Shown: one piece after another, positions 1 through 22,729 of the stretch
Numbering within the stretch: the first letter of the stretch is position 1
Layout of the letters: each line of letters opens with the position of its first letter
Source of the DNA: Rhabdonatronobacter sediminivivens
Lineage (GTDB): Bacteria > Pseudomonadota > Alphaproteobacteria > Rhodobacterales > Rhodobacteraceae
Length of the DNA stretch: 32,000 nucleotides
Direction: 5' to 3'
NCBI RefSeq assembly: GCF_013415485.1
Contig: NZ_JACBXS010000036.1
Coordinates: 1-32,000 of the forward strand
Made by a program: the position numbers and the translations under genes
Notes under the pieces: generated by a model
Database searches by the model: none
Told to the model about the DNA's origin: nothing
The model's input: the letters and a program-made list of their open reading frames with translations, nothing else

Positions 1-2230
1 GCGGATGGGGCGCGGGGGCGGCGGGGACCTCCCAGCCCGAAAGGTCGATGATATTGTGCCAGTCCTGATCCGACAGGTCGATCGCGCCCAGCTCGGCCCC
101 GTGGTGGGTGACCAGCGCGTCGCGCACCAGCGGGCCGATCGGGTGCCAGACCGCGCCGGGGCCGAACCAGCGGCGGATGTTTTCGGCACAGGCGGCGATG
201 TCATAGCGGGGCACGCCTTCGGGGCCGTAATCGCTCATGGGCGGCTGGTTGACGATCACCTTGATGTGCTTCGCGTCGATCTGCGGCAGGTAGCGCTGGT
301 CATGCCACAGGCTGGGCGGATAGCGCAGGATCAGCAGATCGCAGGAGACGTGATCCTCAGGGGTCAGGACCTGGACCGTATCGCCATCGACCGTGTCTAG
401 AACCTCGTCCAGCATCGACAGCTTCACACCGCTTCCGAACATGTCATAGCGGTAGAGTTCGAACAGCCCCGTGCGCAGCCCGTGGGCGCGGTTGAAGCGC
501 GCCTCTTCCAGGCAGGATTTGACGCTGCCGCCGGGCATGCGGAATTCCGACCCGATGATGACGGGGAAATGCGCCCCGGACAGGGGGCGCGCCCGGTCGG
601 ACAGGATGGCGGGAACGGGAAAGGGGCGGGGCGTGGCCGGATCGGCGCTGTAGCGCAGTTCGGCGGCCCGGTGGTGGTGATGGCGTGCCGCGTTGAGATA
701 GGTTTTCAGCGCGCCATGCGCGGCGGCCGGGGACAGGGCCGGGCCGGGGGCGGCATGGGGCCAGCGGGTCAGCAGCAGCGGGGCTTCGGCGGTCAGGGCT
801 TCGGCGGCCGGGGCCAGGGCGCCGGGGTCGGCATGGCGCAGGCGGGCCAGCAGTTCGGCGTCATGGCCCCGGGCCACCCGGTCCCAGGCGCCCAGACGCT
901 CGGTCATCACGGTGCGGCGCAGCAGCAGCGCGCCCGGGTCGGGGGCGCTCAGGGCCATGTCCTCGGTCCAGCCGGTGACCTGAAGCTGCGGGGTCAGCCA
1001 CAGCCGGTTGGCCAGGGTGGCGGCGTGGGTGTCGCTGTCGCGCAGAGGCGCCATCTGCCGGGCGATGCGCTGCGGATGGGCCAGGCTGGTCGCATCCTGC
1101 ACGGTCACGAAAGCGCCCCGGGCCCGGGCCAGCCCGATGTTCAGCGCCTCGGCCTGCAGCGCCGGGGCGGGCAGGTCCAGCAGGCGGATGCGCGGGTCGC
1201 GCGCGGCCGCGGCGGCCACCTGCGCGGCGGTATCGTCGGTGCTGGCGCGGTCGATGACCAGGATCTCCAGCGCGTGCCAGTCCTGCCGCAGAAGGCTGTT
1301 CAGGGTGGCGGCGATGCTGGCGCCGTGGTTGCAGGTGGCCACCAGCACCGAGACCAGCGGCGCGGTGCCGGTCCCGTCAACCCTGCTGTCCGGCGCCCCT
1401 TCGGGCCAGCCCAGCCGGTCGAAGGGGGTATCGGCCTGCCCCCTGCCCGCTTCGGGGCCTTCCACCCCGGAACCCTCCACCTCGGGGCTCTCCAGCACCG
1501 CGCCCGCCAGCCCGGCCCCGGTCCAGACCGCGTTGATCCAGGCCAGACGCTCGGCCGGGGTGGCGCCCAGGTTGGTGCGGGCCAGATGCAGCCGGTCCGA
1601 GGCCAGCCCCGCCGCCGCATCCCGGTCATAATCGGCCAGGGCGGTGTCCCTGTCGCCCAGCAGCTCCAGGCACAGCAGCCAGGCAGGCGCGATCTGGCGG
1701 CGCAGGGCCAGATCAGGGGCCAGTTGCGCGGCGCGGGCCAGCCAGTCCCGGGCCGCGCCACGGGCTGCCGCGCCGTCCCGCGGGTTGGCGCTGTCATGCA
1801 GATAGAGGCAGCCCAGTTCCAGCGCCGCCCGCGCGCGCCGCCCGTCATCGGGGGCGGTTTCGGCCTGCTGGCGCAGATCCTCCTGCACGCGCCGGGTGAA
1901 GCCAAGCGCCAGCCGCCGCAGCCGCAGCGCGGCCATGGAGTGGTCCGTATCCGGGCGGGGGGCACGGCGGGGCAGGTTGCGCCAGCGCCCGATCAGCTCG
2001 TAATGCACCAGCGGATTGAGCCCGCTCTGCGCGGCCTCGGGGTGGGTGTCCAGATAGAAGCGGGTGTCAAAGAACTTGCCCGGATCACGCCCCAGAAACG
2101 CGCCGTATTTCAGGTAATGTTCCGCCGGGGACATCCCCAGCGCCGCAACCTCGGGGTTCCGGGCCATGTACCATTTGCGGTGAAACTGGTCCGATCCTTC
2201 GATCCGGGCGATCTGGGCCTGCCAGTCCAT
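1..2230 (-). CDS. Family-2 glycosyltransferase carrying the shared N-terminal WY/NPLVHY module; 3' end lies outside the window (partial)
   Basis: Not in the supplied track because no stop falls inside the window. My reverse-strand translation from ATG at 2230 reads MDWQAQIARIEGSDQFHRKWYMARNPEVAALGMSPAEHYLKYGAFLGRDPGKFFDTRFYLDTHPEAAQSGLNPLVHYELIGRW. Further on it reads APLVSVLVATCNHGASIAATLNSLLRQDWHALEILVIDRASTDDT, a GT2 Rossmann/DxD-type signature. The frame stays open to position 2, with strongly G/C-biased third codon positions. Confidence 0.8.
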   Translation of the reverse strand, partial: MDWQAQIARIEGSDQFHRKWYMARNPEVAALGMSPAEHYLKYGAFLGRDPGKFFDTRFYLDTHPEAAQSGLNPLVHYELIGRWRNLPRRAPRPDTDHSMAALRLRRLALGFTRRVQEDLRQQAETAPDDGRRARAALELGCLYLHDSANPRDGAAARGAARDWLARAAQLAPDLALRRQIAPAWLLCLELLGDRDTALADYDRDAAAGLASDRLHLARTNLGATPAERLAWINAVWTGAGLAGAVLESPEVEGSGVEGPEAGRGQADTPFDRLGWPEGAPDSRVDGTGTAPLVSVLVATCNHGASIAATLNSLLRQDWHALEILVIDRASTDDTAAQVAAAAARDPRIRLLDLPAPALQAEALNIGLARARGAFVTVQDATSLAHPQRIARQMAPLRDSDTHAATLANRLWLTPQLQVTGWTEDMALSAPDPGALLLRRTVMTERLGAWDRVARGHDAELLARLRHADPGALAPAAEALTAEAPLLLTRWPHAAPGPALSPAAAHGALKTYLNAARHHHHRAAELRYSADPATPRPFPVPAILSDRARPLSGAHFPVIIGSEFRMPGGSVKSCLEEARFNRAHGLRTGLFELYRYDMFGSGVKLSMLDEVLDTVDGDTVQVLTPEDHVSCDLLILRYPPSLWHDQRYLPQIDAKHIKVIVNQPPMSDYGPEGVPRYDIAACAENIRRWFGPGAVWHPIGPLVRDALVTHHGAELGAIDLSDQDWHNIIDLSGWEVPAAPAPHP

Positions 2231-2497
2231 CGGCGTGTCCGCTGCAGCCCCGGCCGGGATATCCGTCTGCGGGCCGGATACGGACGCGGGGCGGGATGTC
2301 GATGTCATGCGCTTGCCTTGCGGATCGTTCCTGTGCGGATCATGCCTGTCCCTGCCTTGCCACGCCGGAACCCTTCCCCGGGGCTGGTTCGGAAGCATCG
2401 TGAATGGCCGTCGGCATGTCAACGCAGGGACGCCGATTTGCCTGGCCCTTCGCGATGCGTCCGGACCGGCCCGCCGGGGTCTTTGGGTCCGGGCGGG

Positions 2498-5411: not shown

Positions 5412-5605
5412 GCGACAGGGCTTCCCGGACTGAAAATTGAGACAAGGATCAGGGCCATCCCTTAACGCATGGCAGGGACGGATGCCAGCCGTGGATGCAA
5501 CGTGCGCTGGCTTCAGGCTTTCTTGGCGGTGCGCCGCTTAGGGTGGCGCCAAGTTTCCCGGCAGCCGCCCTGTCGCCCCCGCACCAACCCCCGGAGCCTG
5601 CGTTC

Positions 5606-10360: not shown

Positions 10361-11494
10361 ATGCCGTCCCAGCCGTGGAGTTTCCACAACCCCGTGAAGG
10401 TGCAGTTCGGGGCGCAATCGCGCAAGGGGCTGGCCGCCACCCTGGCCGGGCAGAAGCTGCTGGTGGTGACCACCGCCCGCGGGCGCGCGCAATTCACCGA
10501 TGACCCGCATCTGGGCACCATCCAGGCCGATCTGACCTGGGTGGACAGCGTCAGCCCCAATCCCGGGCTGACCGACACGCAAAGGGAAATCGACCGGCTG
10601 GCGGGGCAGGACTTCGATGCGGTGCTGGCCTTTGGCGGCGGCTCGGCCATGGATGCGGCCAAGGCGCTGGCGGCGGCGCTGACCCCGGGGCTGGCCTGCC
10701 GCGATCTGGCCAGGCTGATCGACGATCCGGGCGCGCATCTGGACCGACCCCTGCTGCCCATCCATGCGGTCACCACCACCTCCGGCACCGGGGCCGAGGT
10801 CACGCCCTTTGCCACCATCTGGGACCATGAAAACCGCAGGAAACTGTCGCTGGCCAGCCCGCGTCTGTTCCCGGCCACGGCGGTGGTGGATCCGGAACTG
10901 ACCCACGGGCTGCCCGCTGCGGCCACGCTGGGCACCAGCCTGGACGCCATGAACCAGGCGTTCGAATCGGTCTGGAACCGCAACCGCACGCCGATGACCA
11001 CGCTGATGGCCGCCCGCGCCATCGGCCTGGCGCTGCAGGCGATCCCGCGGCTGGTGGCCGATCTGGACGACCACCCCGCCCGCGCCCAGATCGCCGAGGC
11101 CAGCCTGCTGGCGGGGCTGTGCATCAGCCAGACCCGCACCGCGATCTGCCATTCCATGTCCTATCCGCTGACCGCGCATTTCGGCATCGCCCACGGGCTG
11201 GCCTGTGCCGCCACCATGTCGGCGGTGGCCCATGAGGTGCTGGAGCACGCCCCCGATGGCCTGGACGAGGTCGCCGCGCTGAACGGCATGGCGGGGGCCC
11301 GCGCGCTGGTGGCGCACCTGGACACGGTGCTGGCGGGGACCGATCTGCGCGCCCTTGTCGCCGCCGACCTGCCAGAGCCGGAAGCCATCCTCGCCCTGCG
11401 CGGCGAGATGTTCACGCCCGGGCGCAGTGACAATTTCATCCTGCCCGTGGATCATGACATGCTGGGCCGGGTGCTGACACGCGCCCTTGGTTGA
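10361..11494 (+). CDS. Group III iron-containing alcohol dehydrogenase, predicted phosphonoacetaldehyde reductase (PhpC/FomC-like)
   Basis: WSFHNPVKVQFG, AFGGGSAMDAAKA, and a His-rich metal site ...CHSMSYPLTAHFGIAHG. GGGAG lies 6 nt upstream of the ATG. The functional call rests on its position directly after pepM-ppd. Confidence 0.85.
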   Translation: MPSQPWSFHNPVKVQFGAQSRKGLAATLAGQKLLVVTTARGRAQFTDDPHLGTIQADLTWVDSVSPNPGLTDTQREIDRLAGQDFDAVLAFGGGSAMDAAKALAAALTPGLACRDLARLIDDPGAHLDRPLLPIHAVTTTSGTGAEVTPFATIWDHENRRKLSLASPRLFPATAVVDPELTHGLPAAATLGTSLDAMNQAFESVWNRNRTPMTTLMAARAIGLALQAIPRLVADLDDHPARAQIAEASLLAGLCISQTRTAICHSMSYPLTAHFGIAHGLACAATMSAVAHEVLEHAPDGLDEVAALNGMAGARALVAHLDTVLAGTDLRALVAADLPEPEAILALRGEMFTPGRSDNFILPVDHDMLGRVLTRALG

Positions 11495-11515: not shown

Positions 11516-14158
11516 ATGAAACTGGACGATCAACTCGAAGTCCTCAGGAAATCCCGGCAACTGCATCGCAGATGGTATGCCGAAACCTATGCCGATGCCG
11601 CTGCATCGGGGATGGATCCTGCCGAACATTACCTGCATGAGGGCGCCGCGCGCGGCTTCAACCCGGGCAAGTTCTTCGATACGGATTTCTATCTGGCAAG
11701 CTATCCCGATGTGCTGGCCAGCGGGCTCAATCCGGTGGTGCATTTCGAACTGGTCGGCAGCGCCGAGCGCCGCCTGACCCGGCCGCGCAAGGCCCCCGGC
11801 GCACCCGAGGACATGCTGGCCGAAGATGACATGGCACCGGACTGGACCGAAGGCGCGCATCCCCGGGCCTCGGTTCTGATTGTCCGCGGCGGGGCCCGCG
11901 GGGCGCTGGCCGGGACCGACCTGGGCCCGCGCAACCGGTTCCGGCTGCTGCGCGCGCTCAACAGCGCCGATCCCGCCGCCCCGCAGGACCTGTGCGACCA
12001 GGCGCGGGACCTGTGCGACATGATCGCCCGGCTGCAGATGGAATGGATGCCCGTATCGGAGATTCCGACGGGCAAGGCCACGCCCCTGCCCGCGCTGGAT
12101 GGTCCGGTGGTGGCGGTGATCGGCGATGCCGGCAACAGCCCTGCCGATATCGCCGCATTGACCGCGCTGGCCCGCGCCGAAAACCCGCAGGCCACGCTGG
12201 TGCTGTGCGGCACCGGCCCCGATCCGCAGCCTGACCCGGCCCCACAGGGCGGGCCACAGGACGGGCCACAGAACGGGCCACAGGCTGGTGGCGCGGATGA
12301 GGGTGAGACCATGGTCGCCGAGGCGCCCCCCCTGGCGGATGTCCTGCACACGCAGGCCCCGGTCGAGGCGCTGGCCCGGGCCAGCCGCGCCTATACCCAT
12401 GACGCCCCGGCGGGCATGGATGCGCTGATCCGGGGCGTGCCGCTGACCGTCACCGGTGATCCGTTCTACGCGGGCTGGGGGTTCACCGATGACCGCGCCG
12501 CGCTGCGCGGGCGGGCGCGGGCGATGGATTTCGCGCAGTTCCTGGCCCTGTTGCAGTATTTCGTGCCCGATGCGCTGGCCCGCGATGGCTGGTCCGCCAC
12601 CGCCCTTGAGGACGCGCCCCGGATCGGCGGCTGGCTGGTCGACTGGATCGTATCGGATGACTTCGCCATCCATTACACCGCAGGCGTGATGCGCGACAGT
12701 TTCAGCAAGGACGAGCATTTCAAGCTTGGTCAGCTGTTCGAGAAACGGAAGTTCTGGCGCCGGGCGCGGGCCGCCTATGTCCAGGCCGCCAGTTTCGACC
12801 CGGGCAATGCCCGAATTCATTTCCGCGCCGGCTACATGGCCGAGCGGCGCAAGGAATGGCGCGCGGCCGTCCCCCATTACCGGGTCGCCCTCCGCCTGCT
12901 GCCCGGCAACCCGACCTATCGCTTCCGCATGGGGTTCGCGCTGGAAAAGCAGCGCTTCTGGGAAGAGGCGGTCCATTGCTACGCCGGCGCCCTGTTGCTG
13001 GACAACACCAGCCAGAAGTTCCGCGAGCGGCTGCCCATGGCCCGCACGCTGATGAACTTCGTGCGCGATCACCGCGCGGTCAGCGCCGCGTATCTGTCCG
13101 AACTGCATGACGGCGCCGCCGTGACCACGGCCGACCTGTCGGTCAACGGGGTCTATACGGCGAAATGCCGGCTGCACATGCTGGAACACGAAGGCCGGAA
13201 GACGCGGATCTTCGAGAAGCTGATCATGCCGCACCGGGCGGCCTATGCCCTGCGCGAAGTGATCGCCAACGAGGAACTGGCCAGGCTGGATGTGCCGACC
13301 GATCTGCATTTCCCCGCCCTTCTGGGCGTGATCCGCGCCGAGGACGGTGTGCGCGCCATGTTCTTCGAGAATGTCGAGCTTGCCCCCGAAACCGCCACCG
13401 AAACCGCCACCGGGCGCGCCATCGGGGACCGGGATGGAAGCGGGGACGGCGATGACAGGGCGCGGGCGGTCGAGGCCACGGAGGCGATGGTCGCACCGCT
13501 GACGGCCCTGGCGCTGGCCGATTGCTCCACGATGGCCCTGGACCGGCTGGAAGGGCTCGGCAGTGTCTCGGACGCCGATGAGGAAGAGGCCGAGGACCTG
13601 TTCGGCGAGGTCTATCGCCGCAAGCTTGCCTGCCTGATGGACAGCCCCGAAACCGTGCAGGAGATGGAGCGCTTCATCATCGACAACGCCATCGCCCGCA
13701 AGCGCGACGAAACCGTGACCGATTACGCCACGGAACTGTGCAGCCTGCTGGGCCTGTTGCAGCCGCGGCTGGCGGGCACCTTTGCCGCACTGTCGGCCGT
13801 GCCGGGCCATGGCGATCTGAAGCCCGACAATGTGCTGCGCGACCGCGACGGCAGGCTGGTGCTGATCGACTGGCAGTATCTGGCGCTCATGCCCGCAGGG
13901 TTCGACCTGGCGCGCTTCGCCACCTGGTCGGATCTGGACTGGCACGGCTTCGAGGCGGCGGCGCGCCTTTATGCGCATAATCTGGAAACCCGTTTTCCGG
14001 CGGTGCAGGTGATGTGGTCAAGCTGTCTGTGCTATCTTCTGGATGCGCTGGCGTCGCGGCCGGGATGGGTGCAGGAATCGCATGAGGTTTCGGTGCGCCC
14101 GGCGCTGGCCGCCCTGCGCCGACTGTCGGGCCAGATCACCCTGGGAAGTTCAGAATGA
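11516..14158 (+). CDS. 880-aa multidomain protein: shared N-module, KpsC/KpsS-like (Capsule_synth) domain, TPR, and protein-kinase-like phosphotransferase domain
   Basis: N-terminus MKLDDQLEVLRKSRQLHRRWY...NPGKFFDTDFYLASYPDVLASGLNPVVHFELVG. The middle, THDAPAGMDALIRGVPLTVTGDPFYAGWGFTDDR, resembles the KpsC PFYAGWGLT motif. TPR-like region: FEKRKFWRRARAAYVQAASFDPGNARIHFRAGY. The C-terminus has HGDLKPDNVL...LIDWQY, a kinase catalytic loop. Confidence 0.85.
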   Translation: MKLDDQLEVLRKSRQLHRRWYAETYADAAASGMDPAEHYLHEGAARGFNPGKFFDTDFYLASYPDVLASGLNPVVHFELVGSAERRLTRPRKAPGAPEDMLAEDDMAPDWTEGAHPRASVLIVRGGARGALAGTDLGPRNRFRLLRALNSADPAAPQDLCDQARDLCDMIARLQMEWMPVSEIPTGKATPLPALDGPVVAVIGDAGNSPADIAALTALARAENPQATLVLCGTGPDPQPDPAPQGGPQDGPQNGPQAGGADEGETMVAEAPPLADVLHTQAPVEALARASRAYTHDAPAGMDALIRGVPLTVTGDPFYAGWGFTDDRAALRGRARAMDFAQFLALLQYFVPDALARDGWSATALEDAPRIGGWLVDWIVSDDFAIHYTAGVMRDSFSKDEHFKLGQLFEKRKFWRRARAAYVQAASFDPGNARIHFRAGYMAERRKEWRAAVPHYRVALRLLPGNPTYRFRMGFALEKQRFWEEAVHCYAGALLLDNTSQKFRERLPMARTLMNFVRDHRAVSAAYLSELHDGAAVTTADLSVNGVYTAKCRLHMLEHEGRKTRIFEKLIMPHRAAYALREVIANEELARLDVPTDLHFPALLGVIRAEDGVRAMFFENVELAPETATETATGRAIGDRDGSGDGDDRARAVEATEAMVAPLTALALADCSTMALDRLEGLGSVSDADEEEAEDLFGEVYRRKLACLMDSPETVQEMERFIIDNAIARKRDETVTDYATELCSLLGLLQPRLAGTFAALSAVPGHGDLKPDNVLRDRDGRLVLIDWQYLALMPAGFDLARFATWSDLDWHGFEAAARLYAHNLETRFPAVQVMWSSCLCYLLDALASRPGWVQESHEVSVRPALAALRRLSGQITLGSSE
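12242..12289 (+). repeat. Imperfect 12-bp x4 in-frame tandem repeat, encoding (PQxG)n linker
   Basis: ccacagggcggg / ccacaggacggg / ccacagaacggg / ccacaggctggt, inside the 880-aa gene. Confidence 0.8.
12367..12515 (+). repeat. 149-bp tract, identical except for one base, to 18451-18599 (copy A)
   Basis: Base-by-base comparison at offset 6084 gives a single mismatch, 12457 t versus 18541 c. The flanks diverge immediately on both sides. Confidence 0.9.
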
Positions 14159-16554
14159 AGATGCAACCGACCCCTTCCGCCGCTGCCCCGGTCCAGACGC
14201 CCGCCCTCGAGAAGCCCGCAGCCAAGAAGCCCGCAGCCAAGAAGGCCCCGGCCAGAGCCAAACCGGCAGCGGCGGCGGACAAGGCAGAGATGCTGTTCCA
14301 TGCCCGCGACTGGACAGGCGCGCTGGGGCAGTACCGGCTGGCGGCCCAGGCCCCCGCCCTGCAATCCTGGGCGTGGTTCCGGATCGCGCGCTGCCATGAA
14401 GAGCTGGGCGAAAGCCTGGCCGCGCGCGAATTTCACACGCGCGCCCTGCTGGCCGAGCCGCAGTTCTTCTCGCGGCTGCGGCATCTTGAGCGGATCCTGA
14501 ACCCGGCCGATCCCGCCGACCCCCTCTCCGCGTCGGCGCCCCCCCCGGTCGATACCGGCGGCACGGACCGTCTGGCCCGCACGGTCACCGCGGCGCTGCG
14601 GCCCATGCTGGCCCGGTATGACTGGGACGGCGCGATCGCCGCGCTCAGCCCCGGTTTCGCCGGCGAGCGGCTGTGCAATTTCGTGCGCCTTGGCGCATGC
14701 ATCGATCCGCAGACCGGGCTGGGCCATGGGGCGCAGGCGCTTGAGGCGCTGTATCTGCGCTGCCATCTGGAACGCGCGCTGGAGCGGGGCGACGGCTACC
14801 GTGTCATCCCCGATACCATCACCGAGGGCGAGGACCACAAGTTCACCCGCCAGGAAATCCTGCTGTCGGCACAGGACATGCTGGAGCGGCTTTACGGCGC
14901 GCATGCCGATGCGCTGGATTACCGGCTGGTGGCGGTGCATATCTCGGACCAGCTGCGGTTCTGGGAAACCTCCATCGCCCGCTGGGACGCCCTGTGCACG
15001 GATTATCCCCAGCGCCCGGAGTATCGGGTCAGCCTGGCCTTCGCCTGCATGAAGAACCGCGCCTTCGACCGTGCCGCCGCGCTGCTGGACCAGATCGAAC
15101 CGACCCGGCTGGATGCGGAAGAGCGCAGGAAGGTGGCCCGTATCCGGCGCGAGATCACCGAGCGGCGCAATGCCGGGGTGCTGGCCGATTTCCTGGAGAC
15201 GCTGGCCACGGGGCAGATCGCGCAGGCCAAGGAGATCTTCCTCGACCATGTCATCTTCATGGACGAGATGAACAAGGACCAGCATCTGCCGGTGCTGCAC
15301 GCCCTGATGGCGGCGGCGCAGAAGATCCACACCGGGGATGGCGATTTCTTCTTCAGCCCCGATCTGGCACATTCCGATCTGTTCTTCGGCGCCGATCTGC
15401 CGGACCCGCCGCACAAACCCCTGCCGGACTATCCCGCCGCACCGCCCTTCCGGCTGCTGTCGGTGGCGGGGTTCAATTATTCCGGGTCCGGGGCGGTGGG
15501 GGACTTCCTGTCGGATTACGAACCCGTCCAGGTGCTGGACCGGTCGCAATGCTACATCGGGGCCTGGCGGCTGCTGCAGGCGCAGGCGGGCGACCGGGCG
15601 GATTACTGCCGGCAACTGTGCCGCTTCGTGATGGATGCCTGCCTCGGGCTGGTGGATACCAGCCTGTCGGGGCCGGAAGTGGATTCGGCCAACTGGTTCA
15701 AGCGCCGCTGCCTGCTGCGCGCCTATACCACGCGCAAGCTTGCAACCGCGCCCATGATCGAGGCGCTGTGCCGGATGATCGATTTCGCCGCCGACGCCCA
15801 TCAGCCGGATGGCGGCAATGGCGATGACGGGGCAGCGCCTGAAGCGCCTGACCACCAGGCGGGCGGGCTGGAACAGCAGCTGCGCGATTTTCTGGTCTGG
15901 CATGCGATCGCCCCGCAGGTGACACCGGGCAAGACGCTGGTGGTGATCAACAATGACCTCAAGGCCTCGAAGATCGAGGCCAGCCGCCTGCTGCCCGCCT
16001 GCCCGACCATCACCGCCTTCCGCGACCCGCGCGATCAGTTCGTCGCGCAGATGCGTGAATCCACCTTCAACCGCCGCGATGCCGATGCCTTTGTCGAGAT
16101 GATCGAGGCCCATAACCGCGAATATCTGGAGGGCCGCGCGCGGGTGCAGGCCGCGGGCATCGACAGCATGGAGCTGCGTTTCGAAGCCTTTGTGACCGGT
16201 TCTGCCCTGCGCGACCGGGTGCTGGCCTTTGCCGGGCTGTCGGCGGACACGCCGCGGGTGGCGGCGCCCAGCTTCGACCCGGCCCGCAGCCGGGTGAGTA
16301 TCGGCATCCATCAGGGATATGAGGACCGCGCCGCGATCGACCGGGGGGCCGGGATGAAGATATACCTGCCCGCCCCTGAATACAGGCCGCCCCGTCCCTG
16401 CAGGTCACCCCGGCCTGCATTCAGGGGCACCCCGAGACCACCCAGATGCCAGGAGCCGCGACAAGCATGCGTTACACGAAACCGACCGATATTCCGGGCA
16501 CATCGCTGCGATATCGCGAAAAGCTGCGCCGCGATGAGAACGCCGACTACCTGA
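14155..16554 (+). CDS. 799-aa protein: Lys/Ala/Pro-rich N-terminus, TPR-like helical region, and sulfotransferase-like C-domain. The last ~65 codons look non-coding.
   Basis: Its ATG overlaps the previous stop (ATGA). N-terminus: EKPAAKKPAAKKAPARAKPAAAA. C-domain: FNYSGSGAVGDFL, AFRDPRDQFVAQ, LRFEAFVTGSALRDRVLAFAGL, SIGIH. This domain is paralogous to the C-terminus of the 1716-aa protein. The tail after ~16350 uses rare codons (ATA, AGG, AGA, CGA), spans a strong hairpin and overlaps the next gene. Confidence 0.75.
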   Translation: MKMQPTPSAAAPVQTPALEKPAAKKPAAKKAPARAKPAAAADKAEMLFHARDWTGALGQYRLAAQAPALQSWAWFRIARCHEELGESLAAREFHTRALLAEPQFFSRLRHLERILNPADPADPLSASAPPPVDTGGTDRLARTVTAALRPMLARYDWDGAIAALSPGFAGERLCNFVRLGACIDPQTGLGHGAQALEALYLRCHLERALERGDGYRVIPDTITEGEDHKFTRQEILLSAQDMLERLYGAHADALDYRLVAVHISDQLRFWETSIARWDALCTDYPQRPEYRVSLAFACMKNRAFDRAAALLDQIEPTRLDAEERRKVARIRREITERRNAGVLADFLETLATGQIAQAKEIFLDHVIFMDEMNKDQHLPVLHALMAAAQKIHTGDGDFFFSPDLAHSDLFFGADLPDPPHKPLPDYPAAPPFRLLSVAGFNYSGSGAVGDFLSDYEPVQVLDRSQCYIGAWRLLQAQAGDRADYCRQLCRFVMDACLGLVDTSLSGPEVDSANWFKRRCLLRAYTTRKLATAPMIEALCRMIDFAADAHQPDGGNGDDGAAPEAPDHQAGGLEQQLRDFLVWHAIAPQVTPGKTLVVINNDLKASKIEASRLLPACPTITAFRDPRDQFVAQMRESTFNRRDADAFVEMIEAHNREYLEGRARVQAAGIDSMELRFEAFVTGSALRDRVLAFAGLSADTPRVAAPSFDPARSRVSIGIHQGYEDRAAIDRGAGMKIYLPAPEYRPPRPCRSPRPAFRGTPRPPRCQEPRQACVTRNRPIFRAHRCDIAKSCAAMRTPTT
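16373..16427 (+). other. 17-bp stem (one A-C mismatch) with a 21-nt loop: intercistronic RNA or DNA hairpin
   Basis: cccctgaatacaggccg ... cggcctgcattcagggg. It lies 40 nt upstream of ATG 16467 and its AGGAG (16451-16455). No U-tract. Confidence 0.6.
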
Positions 16555-17300
16555 CCCGGCTGCTCTGGGGGGCGCTGGATTTCTCTGCCTATGGCTACGG
16601 GGTGCATCATGCCGCTGTCCTGGCCGCGCGGCTGGGCCTGCCGGCGATCTCGGCCATCGAATTCGGGGTTGCGGGCGGCAACGGGCTGCTGGCGCTGGAA
16701 CGCCATGCCGAACGGATCGAGGCGGACACCGGCGTGCGCATCGAGGTCTATGGCTTCGACACCGGCACCGGCATGCCTGCGCCGCAGGATTACCGCGACA
16801 TGCCCTACCGGTTCCGCGAAGGCAATTACCGGATGGATGTGGAGGCCTTGCGCGCCCGGCTGACCCGGGCCGAACTGGTGCTGGGCGATGTGGCCGAAAC
16901 CGCGGCGGGCTTCGCCGCCGCGCGCCGCCCCGCCCCCATCGGCTTCGCGGCTTTCGATCTGGATTACCATTCCTCGACCATGGCGGCCTTCAGGCTGTTC
17001 GCGGCCGATCACACCGCCTTTCTGCCGCGCTGCCAGCTGTATTTCGATGACATCATCGGCCACGAGATTTCATCCTACAACCGCTTTGTCGGCGAACTGG
17101 CCGCGATCGAGGATTTCAACGCCGCGCATGCGGAGATGAAGATCGCCCCCAGCATGGCCCTGCACCGCTTTCCCATCAACCTGATCTGGTATCACCAGAT
17201 CTATCTGCTGCACCGCTTCACCCATCCGCAATACGCAACCTATATCAGCGGCGCAGGCCCCGATTCCCTCTCCCTGCAGGGCCCCGCGGATGAGGGCTGA
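16467..17300 (+). CDS. Putative class-I SAM-dependent methyltransferase-like protein
   Basis: MRYTKPTDIPG... with AISAIEFGVAGGNGLLALE (a GxGxG-like motif I) and FAAFDLDYHSST. AGGAG lies 11 nt upstream of ATG 16467, so the track start 16446 is rejected. Confidence 0.75.
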   Translation: MRYTKPTDIPGTSLRYREKLRRDENADYLTRLLWGALDFSAYGYGVHHAAVLAARLGLPAISAIEFGVAGGNGLLALERHAERIEADTGVRIEVYGFDTGTGMPAPQDYRDMPYRFREGNYRMDVEALRARLTRAELVLGDVAETAAGFAAARRPAPIGFAAFDLDYHSSTMAAFRLFAADHTAFLPRCQLYFDDIIGHEISSYNRFVGELAAIEDFNAAHAEMKIAPSMALHRFPINLIWYHQIYLLHRFTHPQYATYISGAGPDSLSLQGPADEG

Positions 17301-17482
17301 GCGCGCGGCCAGGCTGGCGGGCGGCGCCCTGCCCGTATCCTGTCGGCATCTTGCCCGTGCCGGGGCCGCATGCCAGTCTGGCGCAGTTTTCATGCGACGT
17401 GACATGCTCTGCAAACCCGGACCCATATGCCCATGCCTGTGACGCCCTGCCCGCATATCCAGACCGGTGCCCCCCGCGCCCA

Positions 17483-17530
17483 TCTGGCATCACGCGCCCC
17501 TCTGGCATCACGCGCCCCTCTGGCATCACC
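17483..17530 (+). repeat. 18-bp direct tandem repeat x2.7 (tctggcatcacgcgcccc) in the 278-bp gap upstream of the 1716-aa gene
   Basis: 17483-17500 and 17501-17518 are identical. 17519-17530 is a partial third copy. The repeat ends 49 nt before ATG 17579. Confidence 0.9.
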
Positions 17531-17578
17531 CCCGGCCCGATACGTCCTTGTCCTTTCGCCGCTGTCCAGGAACCGCCC

Positions 17579-20500
17579 ATGACCTTCGAAGAACAGTTGA
17601 CGATCCTGCGTGCCTCGCGGCATCTGCACAGGAAGTGGTATCTTCAGACCTATCCCGAAGTGGCCGCCGAAGGGGCCGATCCGGCCGAACACTACCTGCG
17701 CGAGGGGGCGCTCAAAGGGTACAGCCCCGGCAAGTTCTTCGACACGCAGTTGTATCTTTCACTCTATCCCGATGTCGCGGAAAGCGGTCTCAATCCGCTG
17801 GTGCATTACGAACGCATCGGGGCGGGCGAAAACCGCATCGCCAACCCCACCCGGGCGGCCATGCGCGACCGGCAGGAAAAGGTGCGCGCCATCCGCCGCG
17901 CAGAGCAGCAGGGCAACGGCCAGCCCCCCGGAAACAGCGTCGGCACCCCCGCCGAACCCTCCTCCCCCCCCCGCACTGCGGCACCCGCGGCAGAGTGGCG
18001 TGCGAAGGAAGGGTTGCAGAAGGTCATCCGCGGGATCGATTTCACCAAGCGGCGGAACTTTCTGCTGTTCTCGGCCCTGCATGCGGCGACGGATGCGCAG
18101 ATTGCGAAACATGCGGACCTGACCCGCGCGCTGTGTCGGCTGATCACCGATCTTGGCCTCACCTGGCACCAGGGGGGCACCGGGCCGAAACCTGCCACCG
18201 CGGGGGCGCGCCCGGGTATCGCGGTGCTGACCACAGGCAGCTTTGATCCCGAAACCGATCGCGCCCTGCTGGATCTTGCCCGGAGCGAAAACCCGGGCGC
18301 GGATATCCTGATCTGCGCGCCCGAAGGGGTCATCGACATCCAGCCCGCCCCGGGCTGCGCCCCTGATGAGGGGGTCGCGGAAGCGCCGGAGCCTGGCCCT
18401 GCTGCGGGATCGGGCAGATCGCGGCCCGGACCATGCGCCACGCTGGCCCGGGCGCTGGCCCGGGCCAGCCGCGCCTATACCCATGACGCCCCGGCGGGCA
18501 TGGATGCGCTGATCCGGGGCGTGCCGCTGACCGTCACCGGCGATCCGTTCTACGCGGGCTGGGGGTTCACCGATGACCGCGCCGCGCTGCGCGGGCGGGA
18601 GCGCCAGCTGGATGTGACCGGGTTCCTGACGATCCTGTTCTTCCTGCTGCCGGACGACCCCTCCCCGTCCGGAGATCCCGTCGCCAGGGTACTGGACCGG
18701 ATCATCGCCACATACCGGGGGGGGACCGCGCGCAGCGCGGCGGCACTGCCCGACAGATCGGGGCTGATGTCCTATGCCGCCGCCCGCAAGGCCAGGGCCG
18801 AAACCCCCGATGCCCCCCGCTACCAGGCTCATGTCAAGGCCAGGATGGCCCTGAACAGCGCCGCCCTGGCGGCCTGCCAGGCGGGCACCTGGCCGGCCTT
18901 TCTCGAAACCCCTGTGCGCGCGCATCTGTCCCTCGGCACGCGCCGGGAAATGGTCGACCGGCTGATCGGCCAGGCGGGGCTGGCGCGGCTGCGCACGGGC
19001 GCGGCGCGGCGCCTGCTGGCCGCGATGATCTGCGGGCTGGCCCATACCGCCGATCATCTGGACCCGGTGATGCCCGAGGTGGCCCGGCTTCTGGGCCGCG
19101 GGGAATGCGCGCGGCTGATTTCGGCGCTGGCGCGCATCTCGGGGCGCCCCTCGGCGACGCTGGTGCCCGGCTGGATGAGCGATGCCGGGGCAGGCACAGG
19201 GGCAGGGACAGGAGCAGGCACGGGGAGCCCCGCAGCCGCACCCGATGACCTGATGCTGGCGGTGATGCAGGTCCTGCCGGGCCAGGGGGGGGACGGGCTG
19301 CCAACGCTGCTGGACTGGGCGCAGCAGTGCCAGGCGCGCGGGCATCGTGGAGCGGCACTGCAGTTGCTGGAATGCTGTTTCCTGACCGGGCGCTGCCCGC
19401 CCGAGGCGCTGGCCCTGGCCATCGACCTGCTTTGGCAGGGGTTCGAGGTCGCGGCCGCGACCGAGATGCTGACCCTTGCCGCGCGCTGCTGGCCCGAATG
19501 GCAGGGCGGGCATTTCCCCATCCTGCTGGCGCAATTGACGGCAGTGCGCGGCGATGCACCGGCCACGCTTGACGCCCTGATCGGCGTCGCCCATGCCGGC
19601 GCTGCCGATGCCCTGCGCAACGCCACATTTGACGCGCTGCTGGCCCGGCATTACCCCGGCCTGCCGCTGACGGCGGCGCTGGAACGCATGGCGACAGAGG
19701 GGGGTCAGCCGGATGAGGACGGGTCCGGACAGGCCCCCGATCCACTGGCCCCCGATCCACTGGCCCCCGATCCACTGGCCCGCGCGCGCTATCTGTCCGG
19801 CCAGCGCCGCCCGGCCGAGGCCCAGGCCCTGCTGGCCGCGCTTCCGGAGGCCGAAGCCGACAGCGATGCCGCGCGGATCGAGATGAGCACCGCCCTGGCG
19901 CTGCAGGGCCGTTTCAAACAGGCCGACACCCTGCTGGGCCCGAACCCCGAAGGCGCCTGCTTTGACCAGGCGGTCCGGCTGGCCGCGCTTGTCGGCGATA
20001 CCGCCCGGGCAAAGGCCCTGGCCAGCATGGCACGCCGGCGCAAGACCGCGCTGGCCCCCGCAACCCGGCGTCTGATGCACCAGACACGCGGCGATTTTGC
20101 CGGCACGATGGAGGCCTGGCGCGCCGATCCTGCCGCCGCGCTGGCCGCGCGCCATCTGGGCATCCGGCTGGCGCGCAGCCTGCAGGCCCTGACCGCCGGA
20201 ACCGGCCAGCGGCTGCTGGTGGCAATGGTCGACACGCCCGGCGGCGATGCGGCCTGGAGCGGGCTTCTGCCCCGGCTGGCCAGGGCCTGTGCCGGGCATG
20301 AGCTGCATATCGCCTGCGACCGGGGCCTGGCGCCGGTTCTGGCGCGGTCCTTCCCGCAGATCGCATTCGTGCCCTGCGCGCGCCAGCCCGGACCGATACC
20401 GGTCACCGACAGGCCCGGCCACCTGCCCGCGGCCGAGCTTCTGGCGCTGTTCGATGCCGAGGGCTGGGACGCCGCCATCGCCGCGGACCGGGTTGCGCTG

Positions 20501-22729
20501 ATCACCGATCTGGCCGCCGATCTGGCCGACAGTCCCGCCGCGTTCGACCCCCGCCCCGGCCTGCTGCCCGACCCCGTCCGGGTGGAGGCCTGGCAGGCAC
20601 GGCTGGAGGGGTTGCCGCGCCCGCTGGTGGGGCTTGCCTGGCGCGGCGGGCGCGGCAACGGGCTGCTGGCGCGGATGGAGGATCTGACCCCGCAGGAGGT
20701 TGCGCATCTGGTCCAGGCCGCCGAGGCCGGTTTCCTGTGCCTGCACGGACCCGAGGCCGCCGCCGATCTGCGCGAGATCGATGCCGCGGGCACCAACCGG
20801 GTGGTGCGGCCCGCCGACCTGGCCCCCGATCCCGCAGCAGACCCGGCAGCAGGCCCGGCCACCGACCCGGTTGCGGACCCCGAGGAGATGCTGGCGCTGA
20901 TGGCCTGTCTTGATGCGGTGATCGCCACCGATCCGCAGACCCGCGCGCTGGCGGGGGCGGGCGGCTGCCGGGTCTGGTACCCGGCACCGATGCCGTCCAA
21001 CCGGGACTGGGGGCGTTTCGCGCTGATGGAAACCGATTACCGCTTCGCCACGGCCACCTATGTGGATGCGCCCCGCCCCGGCGACCGCTCCGGGCTGGTG
21101 AAACGGCTGGCGCAGGGGGTTGCCGAACTGGCCCGTGACGATCTGAACCGCCGTCTTGACCGGATCGAGACGCTTCTGGCCACCGAGAACGCGGGCAGCG
21201 AGGCGATGAACTATGAATTCCGCCGCGCCATCATCGATGCCGAGGAAGACATCCTGACCCACCGCATCCACCGTGATGCCCGCTACTGGGCGATCCGCGC
21301 GCGGGTGGTGGAGAAACTGGGCGTGCGCGCCGAAGCGGCGCTGTGCTGGGGCCAGGCCTGCGCCCAGACCCGCACGCCTGATCCCGCCCTTCTGCGCGCC
21401 CACTGGATCGCACAGGTCTGGGCCGGCCAGCCCGACCTGGCCGAACGCTTCGGCCCGGTGGATCACACCGACCTCCCGGCCGAGGCGCTGTCCCATGTCA
21501 CCACATTGCGCAACGACCGCATTGCCAATGACCTGTGCGACGAGGGGCTGCACCTGCTGGCCGAAGGCCAGCGCGAGAGCGCCGCCGACAAGTTCCGCCA
21601 GGCCGTGCGCGCCTCGTGGCAGCAGCCAGACCATGGCGCGCCGCTGGAGGAGATGGTCACGCGGCTGGCCCGGCTTGATGTCTTTGCCAACCCGCCCGCG
21701 CCCCGGCGCGAAATCGCCATGCGGGTCCGCGCGCTGCCGGATCTGACCTCGTATATCACCCATGCCTCGACCCTGCCGGCGCAAAGCCATCGCGGGCAGG
21801 CGGATCTGGCGGCAGATCAGCCGCGCTCGGTCTTCTGTTCGGGGTATATCTTCTCGGGCTCGGGGGCGGTGGTGGATTTCCTGCGCCAGAGCGCGGCGGT
21901 CACCGTGCCGGGCTATGTGGATGGCGACATCCAGCCCTTCGATACCGAACTCAACATCCTGCGCCGTTTCTACGGGCTGCAGCATCTGCTGGACCTGCCG
22001 CCTGAACAGCTGTCGATCGAACATCTGGGCGAATTCCTGCTGGGCTCGGTGCTGGGGCTGATCGCGTATCCCTCGGACCGCTACCGGCTGGACATGTCGC
22101 GCAAACGCTCGCTGCGCGGCGCCTTCGAAGCCACCGGCCGGATGCCCGACCTGATCGATCTGTGCGATCTTCTGCTGGATACGGTTGAAAGCGGCAGCGG
22201 CCCCGATGCCGAGATCATCCTGGATGCCGCCTGTCGCATGGTGAACGGTCTGGCGCCACGGCTGGCCCGGCCCGGTCAGCCGGTGGTGCTGTGGAACAAC
22301 TGCATCCAGGCCTGGAACGCGCGCACCCTGGCGGTGATGGAGCGGTCGGTGATGGTTGCCGTGCAGCGCGATCCGCGCGACCAGTATGCGTCCCAATTCT
22401 ATGAGCGTGGCGACAAGGACCGCCGGAACGAGCTGGAGAACTTCATCTCCCGCACGCATCATCACCAGCGCATGCGCGCACAGCTGGACCTGATACCGGG
22501 GCTGCGCGCGCGCATCCTGGATGTGCGTTTCGAGGATGTGGTCACCGATCCGGACACCCGCGCCAGGCTTCTGGACTTCGCCGCCCTTCCCTCAGACGGG
22601 TTCCGCGAGGGGCTGTATTTCCAGCCCCCGGACTCGCTGCGCAACATCGGCATTCACCGCGCCTTCCCCGATCAGGACGCCATCGGACGGATCGCGCGGG
22701 AATTCCCGGACCTGCTCTGGAAAGGCTGA
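17579..22729 (+). CDS. 1716-aa megaprotein: shared N-module, KpsC/KpsS-like domain, TPR/helical region, GT9-like GT-B domain, second helical region, and sulfotransferase-like domain
   Basis: MTFEEQLTILRASRHLHRKWYLQTYPEVAAEGADPAEHYLREGALKGYSPGKFFDTQLYLSLYPDVAESGLNPLVHYERIG. KpsC/S-like: THDAPAGMDALIRGVPLTVTGDPFYAGWGFTDDR. GT9-like: LVGLAWRGGRGNG...EEMLALMACLDAVIATDPQTRALAGAGGCRVWYPAP...DW. Sulfotransferase-like: YIFSGSGAVVDFL, VQRDPRDQYASQ, VRFEDVVTDPDTRARLLDFAAL, NIGIH. AGGA lies 9 nt upstream of ATG 17579, so the track start 17351 is rejected. Confidence 0.9.
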   Translation: MTFEEQLTILRASRHLHRKWYLQTYPEVAAEGADPAEHYLREGALKGYSPGKFFDTQLYLSLYPDVAESGLNPLVHYERIGAGENRIANPTRAAMRDRQEKVRAIRRAEQQGNGQPPGNSVGTPAEPSSPPRTAAPAAEWRAKEGLQKVIRGIDFTKRRNFLLFSALHAATDAQIAKHADLTRALCRLITDLGLTWHQGGTGPKPATAGARPGIAVLTTGSFDPETDRALLDLARSENPGADILICAPEGVIDIQPAPGCAPDEGVAEAPEPGPAAGSGRSRPGPCATLARALARASRAYTHDAPAGMDALIRGVPLTVTGDPFYAGWGFTDDRAALRGRERQLDVTGFLTILFFLLPDDPSPSGDPVARVLDRIIATYRGGTARSAAALPDRSGLMSYAAARKARAETPDAPRYQAHVKARMALNSAALAACQAGTWPAFLETPVRAHLSLGTRREMVDRLIGQAGLARLRTGAARRLLAAMICGLAHTADHLDPVMPEVARLLGRGECARLISALARISGRPSATLVPGWMSDAGAGTGAGTGAGTGSPAAAPDDLMLAVMQVLPGQGGDGLPTLLDWAQQCQARGHRGAALQLLECCFLTGRCPPEALALAIDLLWQGFEVAAATEMLTLAARCWPEWQGGHFPILLAQLTAVRGDAPATLDALIGVAHAGAADALRNATFDALLARHYPGLPLTAALERMATEGGQPDEDGSGQAPDPLAPDPLAPDPLARARYLSGQRRPAEAQALLAALPEAEADSDAARIEMSTALALQGRFKQADTLLGPNPEGACFDQAVRLAALVGDTARAKALASMARRRKTALAPATRRLMHQTRGDFAGTMEAWRADPAAALAARHLGIRLARSLQALTAGTGQRLLVAMVDTPGGDAAWSGLLPRLARACAGHELHIACDRGLAPVLARSFPQIAFVPCARQPGPIPVTDRPGHLPAAELLALFDAEGWDAAIAADRVALITDLAADLADSPAAFDPRPGLLPDPVRVEAWQARLEGLPRPLVGLAWRGGRGNGLLARMEDLTPQEVAHLVQAAEAGFLCLHGPEAAADLREIDAAGTNRVVRPADLAPDPAADPAAGPATDPVADPEEMLALMACLDAVIATDPQTRALAGAGGCRVWYPAPMPSNRDWGRFALMETDYRFATATYVDAPRPGDRSGLVKRLAQGVAELARDDLNRRLDRIETLLATENAGSEAMNYEFRRAIIDAEEDILTHRIHRDARYWAIRARVVEKLGVRAEAALCWGQACAQTRTPDPALLRAHWIAQVWAGQPDLAERFGPVDHTDLPAEALSHVTTLRNDRIANDLCDEGLHLLAEGQRESAADKFRQAVRASWQQPDHGAPLEEMVTRLARLDVFANPPAPRREIAMRVRALPDLTSYITHASTLPAQSHRGQADLAADQPRSVFCSGYIFSGSGAVVDFLRQSAAVTVPGYVDGDIQPFDTELNILRRFYGLQHLLDLPPEQLSIEHLGEFLLGSVLGLIAYPSDRYRLDMSRKRSLRGAFEATGRMPDLIDLCDLLLDTVESGSGPDAEIILDAACRMVNGLAPRLARPGQPVVLWNNCIQAWNARTLAVMERSVMVAVQRDPRDQYASQFYERGDKDRRNELENFISRTHHHQRMRAQLDLIPGLRARILDVRFEDVVTDPDTRARLLDFAALPSDGFREGLYFQPPDSLRNIGIHRAFPDQDAIGRIAREFPDLLWKG
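18451..18599 (+). repeat. 149-bp tract, identical except for one base, to 12367-12515 (copy B)
   Basis: See copy A. Both copies encode the identical peptide ALARASRAYTHDAPAGMDALIRGVPLTVTGDPFYAGWGFTDDRAALRGR. Confidence 0.9.
19187..19222 (+). repeat. Imperfect 12-bp x3 in-frame repeat, encoding (GAGT)3
   Basis: ggggcaggcaca / ggggcagggaca / ggagcaggcacg, inside the 1716-aa gene. Confidence 0.8.
19732..19780 (+). repeat. Perfect 15-bp x3.3 in-frame tandem repeat, encoding (PDPLA)3
   Basis: cccgatccactggcc occurs at 19736-19750, 19751-19765 and 19766-19780, preceded by a partial ggcc. Confidence 0.95.

Follow-up and report, generated by a model that had tools for sequence, protein, structure and literature searches.

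The window analysed here, a stretch of 32,000 nucleotides from the alphaproteobacterium Rhabdonatronobacter sediminivivens (assembly GCF_013415485.1, contig NZ_JACBXS010000036.1), carries on its + strand a single gene for a protein of 1716 amino acids (aa), below called the megaprotein, which homology searches identify as a natural fusion of two separate and widespread protein types, families A and B. The architecture is a rare variant derived from known kinds, and the main value of the analysis lies in the C-terminal, family-B part, a sulfotransferase-fold domain whose family is associated with the phosphonate gene ppm. As the best explanation overall, to which we give about an even chance, we propose that the megaprotein is a cytoplasmic tailoring enzyme for a surface glycan decorated with 2-hydroxyethylphosphonate (HEP); those parts of the explanation that concern the fusion, the genomic context and the vestigial state of one domain are, taken together, likely to be correct. 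The gene and its parts are as follows.

17579..22729, + strand: the megaprotein coding sequence (1716 aa, expected product 185 kDa; open reading frame (ORF) and orthologues), its product predicted to be soluble and cytoplasmic
17579..17914, + strand: N-module, aa 1-112, with two 'Y..YPDV..G.(D/N)P..HY' repeats (BLASTP, hidden Markov model (HMM))
18026..18703, + strand: KpsC-like remnant, aa 150-375, part of the cytidine monophosphate (CMP)-binding lobe alone
18704..20185, + strand: first helical region, aa 376-869, tetratricopeptide repeat (TPR)-like and Ala/Leu-rich (Tandem Repeats Finder (TRF), weak TPR_19 match, homology)
20186..21193, + strand: GT9-like domain of the GT-B fold, aa 870-1205, both Rossmann lobes (AlphaFold2, Foldseek, family profile)
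21194..21823, + strand: second helical/TPR-like region, aa 1206-1415, equivalent to the N-terminal TPR part of family-B proteins
21824..22726, + strand: sulfotransferase-fold domain, aa 1416-1716 (AlphaFold2, Foldseek, family conservation)

The evidence for fusion comes from an exhaustive phmmer search with aa 517-1716 against 1.84 billion representative sequences, in which the 577 matches split into two disjoint families. Family A matches aa ~731-1186 and constitutes the C-terminal part of proteins of ~1100-1200 aa that combine Capsule_synth, TPR and GT9-like regions, with shorter stand-alone forms also present; family B matches aa ~1411-1716 and constitutes the C-terminal 300 aa of proteins of ~500-530 aa with an N-terminal TPR region. 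Because family-A proteins stop at aa ~1186 of the megaprotein and two family-B proteins begin to align at aa 1243 (P0019, 481 aa) and aa 1200 (P0020, 569 aa), both through to the C-terminus, the megaprotein can be parsed as the N-module followed by A and then B, with the junction at ~1190-1245. Among the 1.84 billion representatives, only two other proteins, P0001 and P0018, span both the GT9-like and the sulfotransferase-like parts, and a word-indexed homologue search with both families combined in one alignment yielded just 17 proteins, all of the generic TPR+GT9 type and none from family B. An original prediction, made from the sequence alone, had called for a survey of the constituent domains as separate genes, and both families do exist as stand-alone proteins. 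The same prediction held that the size and domain order were atypical for the loci in question; this is true of the full architecture, which is rare, but not of the KpsC-like+TPR+GT9-like combination, which is common in nonulosonic-acid capsule loci. The family-B sulfotransferase-fold domain also occurs inside other giant enzymes (L017 6125-10792; L016 8132-10891; L027 7247-10372); one such giant, a 1556-aa protein of an uncultured alphaproteobacterium with GT4, GT2, DUF7024 and sulfotransferase-like domains, is followed by genes for a cytidylyltransferase, an HpcH/HpaI-family enzyme, a HAD hydrolase and an aminotransferase.

A fusion of this size invites the suspicion that several genes have been joined by an assembly error or a frameshift, the more so as long ORFs can arise by chance in 70% GC DNA, the antisense strand here offering one of 1568 aa. 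The probability of such an artefact is, in our view, negligible. Positions 17351-22729 (+) form a single unbroken ORF in which the ATG at 17579 yields 1716 aa, and collinear orthologues are found in independent assemblies: P0001 (1705 aa, 60% identity across 100% of the query) in both an NCBI metagenome-assembled genome of Pseudorhodobacter and a Logan assembly, and P0018 (1577 aa, 50% identity), a full-length orthologue that lacks the N-module, in a separate SRA assembly. Thus, the claim of one uninterrupted polypeptide is borne out, and an origin through assembly frameshifts is excluded. The G+C content at third codon positions (GC3) is 0.82 in the megaprotein frame (roughly 69% GC for the window), as expected for a gene. 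The antisense ORF (17759-22465, - strand) can be set aside as a shadow ORF given its GC3 of only 0.76 and the homologues of the + frame; it is a product of high GC content and a pitfall for gene callers. The start at 17579 is supported by the N-terminus of P0001, which reads MTFDEQL, by the paralogous N-modules of the neighbouring gene g880 and of a Maf-like gene, which start at their own residue 1, and by an AGGA 9 nt upstream of the ATG. In the 278-nt gap between the preceding gene, g284, and this start lies a near-perfect 18-bp x3.1 tandem repeat, CGCGCCCCTCTGGCATCA (17475-17529), in frame with the ORF, yet upstream of the supported ATG. The megaprotein contains no transmembrane segments (the highest Kyte-Doolittle 19-aa window scores 1.45), an identical sequence was not found in the protein collection searched, a plasmid tblastn search gave no match, and nothing informative came from scanning the surroundings of the gene for promoters and terminators.

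So what could be the function of such a fusion? The strongest lead is provided by three genes upstream in the same orientation.

7848-9179, + strand: Ppm with an N-terminal PF01467 cytidylyltransferase (Ppm-CTase; Pfam, EDKxxxxxNS motif)
9176-10315, + strand: Ppd, overlapping the Ppm gene at ATGA (Pfam)
10361-11494, + strand: iron-dependent alcohol dehydrogenase (Fe-ADH; Pfam)

By its motif the encoded protein is a true Ppm, and it is identical to NYS26209.1 of R. sediminivivens. The arrangement of Ppm with PF01467 is that of Fom1, which makes CMP-HEP, and Fe-ADH of the PhpC/FomC type makes HEP; since the window combines a Fom1-like fusion with Fe-ADH, the upstream genes would be expected to make CMP-HEP. 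These genes agree with Fom1, Fom2 and FomC domain for domain, but the window encodes no Fom3, Fom4, FomD or LicD-like transferase; with PntC/LicD-type phosphonyl tailoring it shares the context of cell-surface tailoring. Furthermore, the linkage extends well beyond this genome. With each GTDB species represented by one genome, a scan yielded 32 family-B loci; 11 of them had a Ppm-CTase fusion no more than 10 kb away, as a rule as the direct neighbour and with gaps mostly <100 nt, and among these 11 are all 5 loci closest to the megaprotein. Given that ppm is present in about 5% of genomes, ~0.01 ppm-adjacent loci would be expected by chance. The ppm-bearing loci come from Alpha- and Gammaproteobacteria, Verrucomicrobia, Actinomycetota and Spirochaetia (five phyla by our count); the stand-alone family-B protein P0021 lies directly upstream of Ppm-CTase, Ppd and ADH. 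P0035 has no ppm within 8 kb. The locus of the Pseudorhodobacter orthologue (L001) retains only DUF2793, Ppm-CTase, Ppd, ADH, g284 and the megaprotein, and has no g880, g799, NeuB or Maf, carrying GT2s and a UDP-glucose dehydrogenase; hence the HEP genes, g284 and the megaprotein form the conserved core. Family A has a different setting: 28 of 79 metagenomic loci have NeuB no more than 10 kb away, the share being 20 out of 38 among those that are 12 kb or longer; ppm and family B were each found in none of the 79, and P0022 resides in a kps-type capsule locus with export genes and a full pseudaminic-acid-like gene set. A literature search returned nothing relevant that links a sulfotransferase-like protein to ppm. 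The prediction of a tailoring line on one polypeptide for one glycan was right with respect to the single polypeptide and missed both the linkage to the HEP operon and the association of the C-terminal family with ppm.

The AlphaFold2 model of the C-terminal domain (mean pLDDT 88.1) leaves little room for doubt about the fold that the original prediction had assigned to it: the top 24 Foldseek matches in the PDB are sulfotransferases without exception (OLS-ST 4GOX, TPST2, CurM-ST, Stf9, Stf1), with the best E value, 7e-5, for OLS-ST 4GOX and a best TM score of 0.44/0.48-0.49. By the Pfam threshold, the megaprotein is nevertheless not a demonstrable member of Sulfotransfer_3 (PF13469), as it scores 21.4-23.7 bits against a cut-off of 27, over the C-terminal half of the profile only (aa 1586-1671 and 21.4 bits for the full protein), and family profiles found neither a sulfotransferase nor a glycosyltransferase among PDB sequences; with an untrimmed family-B profile, TPR structures overwhelmed the result. 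Canonical sulfotransferases that use 3'-phosphoadenosine 5'-phosphosulfate (PAPS) carry a 5'-phosphosulfate loop PKSGTT or PRSGTT with a catalytic Lys/Arg. This residue is absent from the megaprotein, whose P-loop GYIFSGSGAVVD (aa 1422-1433) contains no Lys/Arg and reads GYIFSGSGA at the place where the family has an invariant GF.WSGSGA, with Trp/Phe instead; the near-invariant Asp1433 is a candidate metal ligand. The complete set of family-B invariants comprises the P-loop GF.WSGSGA..D, a Glu ~25 residues on, NN, RDPRDQ and FE.FV; the megaprotein carries E1457, RDPRDQYAS (1597-1605) and VRFEDVV (1649-1655), and retains 28 of 32 conserved columns, the 4 changes being conservative and all polar family-conserved residues intact. 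R1597 and S1605 of RDPRDQYAS align with RDGRDVVCS of a canonical Sulfotransfer_3 protein, the 3'-phosphate-binding motif, in which the Ser position is occupied about as often by Ala as by Ser in those family members that were read. Thus, with the PAPS sulfotransferases of the Sulfotransfer_3, TPST, CurM-ST, OLS-ST and Stf kinds, the domain shares the fold, R-D-x-R-D...S, a YEDL-like motif and a Glu after the P-loop, but its P-loop is (F/W)SGSGA without Lys/Arg, its Pfam score is below threshold, and its closest relatives are linked in operons to ppm, not to sulfate activation genes.

An intriguing possibility suggested by these findings is that the sulfotransferase fold has been put to use in phosphonate chemistry. 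Under this hypothesis, the upstream genes would convert phosphoenolpyruvate to HEP and then to CMP-HEP, as their characterised homologues do; the soluble megaprotein would act on a surface glycan, or on a precursor of it, inside the cytoplasm, with the N-module and the TPR arrays holding it to other N-module enzymes or to the acceptor; the KpsC-like piece would be a vestigial, non-catalytic lobe; the GT9-like domain might add or bind a sugar, or supply or hold the sugar acceptor; and the intact sulfotransferase-fold domain would perform the phosphonate-linked step. In the version that we prefer, this domain would take the phosphonyl group of CMP-HEP and attach it to a hydroxyl of the glycan, with a geometry that parallels sulfuryl transfer from PAPS, that is, with a nucleoside 5'-phosphate as the leaving group and Glu1457 as the candidate base. 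That the domain belongs functionally to the HEP pathway we consider somewhat probable; that it is specifically a CMP-HEP transferase is a tentative proposal, and a shade more speculative still is its generalisation, namely that the family-B sulfotransferase-fold domains of the megaprotein and g799 represent a new kind of enzyme that employs CMP-HEP instead of PAPS and transfers a phosphonyl group to a sugar hydroxyl.

Several observations weigh against this proposal. In 21 of the 32 family-B loci there is no ppm nearby and the neighbours are those of generic glycopolymer loci, namely ABC-2 transporters, TagF-like enzymes, glycosyltransferases and assorted nucleotidyl- and cytidylyltransferases, so that the phosphonate link is a property of a subfamily rather than of family B as a whole. 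The canonical-looking 3'-phosphate motif suits PAPS at least as well as CMP-HEP, and for this reason PAPS-dependent sulfation has to be regarded as about equally likely as CMP-HEP transfer. Co-location with ppm could mean that one glycan is both sulfated and phosphonylated, and there are other candidates for the transfer of HEP, such as the TagF-like enzymes in L005 and L010 and the aminoglycoside phosphotransferase (APH)-like domain of g880. The alternative that takes up these points, and that we hold to be possible, is that the C-terminal domain is an ordinary PAPS-dependent sulfotransferase and that the megaprotein sulfates, and perhaps also glycosylates, a surface glycan to which other enzymes add HEP, the link to ppm then reflecting a shared locus and not shared chemistry. 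It accords with the uniformly sulfotransferase identity of the top structural neighbours, the Sulfotransfer_3 matches of 24 of 31 family-B members, the alignment of R1597...S1605 and the YEDL-type motif with canonical enzymes, the conserved Glu, which could serve as the base as it does in TPST, and the presence of canonical sulfotransferases near some family-B genes. Less easily accommodated are the Trp/Phe that replaces the catalytic residue, the position of the megaprotein below the Pfam cut-off together with the failure of the family profile to find any solved sulfotransferase by sequence, the replacement of the 3'-phosphate-binding Ser by Ala in about half of the members read, and the fact that PAPS-synthesis genes were not seen among the family-B neighbours; nor would a shared locus by itself readily account for directly adjacent ppm genes in five phyla.

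Transfer of HEP by family B, should it be confirmed, would have consequences beyond this locus. Esters of HEP with polysaccharides are a major marine pool of organic phosphorus, the dominant type of phosphonate in dissolved organic matter (DOM) and a source of methane in aerobic waters. The phosphonyl tailoring steps after Ppm have been described as unknown. To our knowledge, LicD-like enzymes are merely suspected for 2-aminoethylphosphonate, and we know of no proposal for the attachment of HEP. Family B would then supply the phosphonyl transferases that have long been missing from the assembly of HEP-esterified polysaccharides, and the megaprotein, as a Rosetta-stone fusion, would reveal the pathway of the acceptor, namely a capsule-type glycan of the nonulosonic-acid kind. 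In any case, a sulfotransferase-fold family that abuts Fom1-type ppm in five phyla is a concrete shortlist for assay. With respect to the HEP exopolysaccharides of Stackebrandtia and Glycomyces and the HEP esters of marine DOM, the predicted class of product is alike and the locus here encodes methyltransferases, the comparison being one of genes alone on our side. Yu et al. reportedly gave, in 2014, details of linkage and methylation for the Stackebrandtia and Glycomyces phosphonoglycans.

The picture is very different for the N-terminal transferase-like region. The full megaprotein has just two Pfam matches, one being the sub-threshold match to Sulfotransfer_3 and the other Capsule_synth (PF05159), which scores 24.6 bits where the cut-off is 20 and covers aa 295-337, but no more than positions 236-278 of the 310 in the profile. 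The PDB chains of KpsC match aa 218-335 (E 1e-5), which corresponds to KpsC residues 165-271 only; the segment SRAYTHDAPAGMDALIRGVPLTVTGDPFYAGWGFTDDR aligns with the CMP-binding lobe of KpsC, and the FYAGWGFTDDR motif is retained. Three features define the retaining beta-Kdo transferases (Kdo being 3-deoxy-D-manno-octulosonate): a QxxxD nucleophile, an HP motif and an acceptor lobe at the N-terminus (PMC10148158). In the alignment with E. coli KpsC and relatives, QxxxD with its catalytic Asp is absent from the megaprotein, which reads VLTTGSFDP at that place; the HP motif, whose His contacts the CMP phosphate, is absent as well, KVHPDV of KpsC aligning with ICAPEG; and in place of an acceptor lobe there are only ~55 structured residues upstream of the KpsC-like lobe, as compared with P0009, which aligns to KpsC 18-305. 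Compared with KpsC and KpsS (GT107, PF05159; 6MGB, 6MGC, 8FUX), then, the CMP-binding lobe is alike and the Pfam score exceeds the cut-off, but the acceptor lobe and the helical subdomain have been cut to those ~55 aa and both motifs are gone. By this comparison, the megaprotein falls outside the KpsC family, and the region is almost certainly vestigial and non-catalytic; the KpsC/S-like domain of the original prediction stands as a similarity confined to part of one lobe, but almost certainly not as a transferase. Both QxxxD and HP are missing from the megaprotein, P0001, P0018, g880 and P0009, whereas the family-A proteins P0022, P0033, P0041 and P0054 retain GQVxxDxS and (K/R)PHPDV. The stand-alone family-A proteins without the motifs (P0009, P0036, P0040, P0044, P0063) form a group alongside these intact ones, and it follows that decay of the N-terminal glycosyltransferase lobe is recurrent and not specific to the megaprotein. 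Annotation calls for some caution here, with one of three 'transferase' domains being vestigial: the stacking of Pfam names inflates the catalytic content of such proteins.

The GT9-like domain occupies a middle ground. The original prediction had seen a GT-B half-domain; the AlphaFold2 model of aa 870-1270 (mean pLDDT 81.6) shows instead a complete two-lobe GT-B domain at aa ~878-1205, for which Foldseek returned 3TOV as the best match (E 2.7e-7, TM 0.49/0.56) and WaaF, WaaC and TibC (1PSW, 2H1H, 4RAP) as the next. The predicted LVGLAWRGG...DW pattern is present from aa 1016 (LVGLAWRGG at aa 1016-1024; PGGD at aa 887-890), and so is the insert said to interrupt the domain, the PD/PA-rich stretch PDPAADPAAGPATDPVADP (aa 1083-1101, nt 20825-20881), of which ~14 residues are an insertion relative to the family that is common to P0001 only. 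There is no match to Glyco_transf_9 (PF01075) at E<=10 for aa 880-1270, and the megaprotein is not a demonstrable GT9 member by the Pfam threshold; 4 of 14 relatives match this profile weakly (best E 0.0016), and the family profile reaches TPR+PF01075 proteins, which carry precomputed PF01075, with domain E values of ~1e-16 to 1e-33. A word-indexed homologue search with the GT9-like region alone gave no matches and missed even the 60% orthologue. The domain retains 28 of the 43 columns conserved in stand-alone relatives and has lost the family polar residues R49, S170, R178, E270 and R292; in the loop after strand 1, the family FGPGDEIRF is replaced by DTPGGDAAW, with the acid of the Gly-Asp pair shifted by one. 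In WaaC, the catalytic Asp after beta-strand 1 is Asp13. With GT9 enzymes (WaaC, WaaF, TibC, 3TOV) and the uncharacterised proteobacterial TPR+PF01075 proteins, the domain shares the two-lobe GT-B fold and a Gly-Asp loop after beta-strand 1; it differs from GT9 in the lack of a Pfam match, a TM score of only ~0.5, a deviating C-lobe DTG/H motif, the 14-aa Pro/Asp/Ala insertion and, at several positions that its own family conserves, the loss of the polar residue. Among the genes of the 32-kb window, none for heptose synthesis was seen.

There remain the N-module and the helical spacers. The N-module recognised by the original prediction is found at aa 1-112 and has no Pfam match at E<=10; HMM search detects four copies in the window, in the megaprotein, g880, the Maf-like protein and a GT2, the other copies, about 85-112 aa each, being located as follows.

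11516-11850, + strand: N-module copy (HMM)
30584-30250, - strand: N-module copy (HMM)
~2230-1975, - strand, within ORF 2..2497: N-module copy (HMM)

The megaprotein copy is 61% identical to aa 1-114 of the Maf-like protein (BLASTP), and the match to g880, 43% identical over its aa 1-352, includes the N-module (BLASTP). Recent gene conversion among the copies is ruled out by their DNA identity of just 61-64%, and from these values the copies are old paralogues. The module may be a shared docking or localisation tag, in which case its presence on four enzymes of one locus could mark an entire glycan pathway; it is also found at the head of P0001, of a 951-aa GT2 in the Pseudorhodobacter locus and, in other genomes, of numerous giant GT2 proteins. 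Homology marks the spacers as TPR-like, as had been proposed: relatives have TPR_14 and TPR_19 matches, the N-terminal regions of family B match consensus TPR structures (E 4e-29), and the first helical region, where TPR_19 itself matches weakly (E 0.0099), is homologous from aa ~600-730 onward to the helical part of family-A proteins. TRF recovers both of the in-frame tandem repeats noted in this region, 12 bp x3.2 at 19187-19225, encoding GAGT x3, and 15 bp x3.3 with 100% matches at 19732-19781, encoding APDPL x3 at 19733-19777; the two are absent from the orthologue P0001. A probable role of the TPR arrays and the N-module is to bring a complex together, and in its manner of working the megaprotein would be somewhat like the multi-domain enzymes of capsule and O-antigen synthesis.

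With all domains in view, three further explanations can be weighed against that of a HEP-glycan tailoring enzyme. The original prediction itself, in which three active transferases (Kdo/ulosonic-acid, heptosyl and sulfo) act in sequence on one glycan, is improbable. All three similarities, to KpsC, GT9 and sulfotransferases, hold at the level of the fold, and the family-A relatives P0022, P0033, P0041 and P0054 have QxxxD and HP intact; but in the megaprotein, P0001 and P0018 the KpsC-like domain is devoid of these motifs and of the acceptor lobe, the GT9-like domain has lost its polar residues and displaced its Gly-Asp acid, and the sulfotransferase loop has no Lys/Arg. Loss of all conserved active-site residues was named as grounds for abandoning the prediction; the KpsC-like region has lost its defining motifs, the GT9-like domain several polar family residues, and the sulfotransferase-fold domain, its missing Lys/Arg apart, retains every polar residue conserved in its family. 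This same intactness of every polar family-conserved residue argues against the still less probable view of the megaprotein as a mostly non-catalytic scaffold, a pseudoenzyme that would organise the enzymes of the locus via its TPR arrays and N-module, and so does an ORF that three lineages have kept at a length of 1577-1716 aa, with 50-69% identity; the degenerate KpsC-like lobe, the diverged GT9-like domain, ~700 aa of helical repeats and linkers with strain-specific low-complexity repeats are what such a scaffold might be expected to display. Protein glycosylation of the FlmG/Maf type, with the TPR region binding flagellin or a secreted protein and the enzyme modifying its nonulosonic-acid glycan with, for example, HEP or sulfate, is unlikely, if less so than these two. 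Among the products of the window are NeuB, two CTP_transf_3 proteins and a Maf-like protein of 1017 aa with the 61%-identical N-module; a nonulosonic-acid pathway shares the locus with the megaprotein, and the order of TPR (aa 376-869) and GT-B (870-1205) is the layout of FlmG, the Caulobacter flagellin pseudaminyl/legionaminyl transferase, all these proteins being cytoplasmic; the likeness is one of layout alone. However, the megaprotein is about three times larger than FlmG and has extra domains, no flagellin or flagellar gene is present in the 32-kb window, the family-A relatives sit in kps capsule loci with export genes, and the Pseudorhodobacter locus has GT2s and UDP-glucose dehydrogenase, not Maf.

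The remaining genes complete the picture of the window, where the gene order on the + strand is Ppm, Ppd, Fe-ADH, g880, g799, g284, megaprotein and an FkbM methyltransferase.

11516-14158, + strand: g880, N-module + KpsC-like remnant + TPR + APH/choline-kinase-like domain (BLASTP, Pfam)
14155-16554, + strand: g799, TPR + family-B sulfotransferase-fold domain (family-B HMM, E 3e-85)
16446..17300, + strand: g284, 284 aa, a conserved partner with homologues in L008 and L009/L010
23707-30584, - strand: nonulosonic-acid set convergent with the operon (two CTP_transf_3, NeuB, an IMPase-family protein and the 1017-aa TPR + MptE/Maf-like protein)

The genes g880 and g799 overlap at an ATGA (14155-14158) and, by their domain content, look like a split paralogue of the megaprotein in which a kinase has replaced the GT9-like domain; together with the fusion, this split paralogue ties the ppm-associated sulfotransferase-fold family to a nonulosonic-acid-type glycan pathway. 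The gene for the orthologue P0018 is followed by a separate APH gene (L004 5096-6220). The homologues of g284 are 80% identical in L008 and 60% in L009/L010, and a weak match to Methyltransf_24 (E 0.076) makes a class-I methyltransferase a possible assignment. A DUF2793 gene lies just upstream of the phosphonate genes in both the window (5495-6715) and L001 (2951-4354). Finally, the tail of g799 (16340-16554) departs from the family: its last ~70 residues are Arg/Pro-rich, without the family final helix (I..IE..FP.LL), and it overlaps the start of g284 by 108 nt. A frameshift hiding the last helix can be dismissed, the motif being absent in every frame, and the tail may be degenerate or the result of a lost stop codon.

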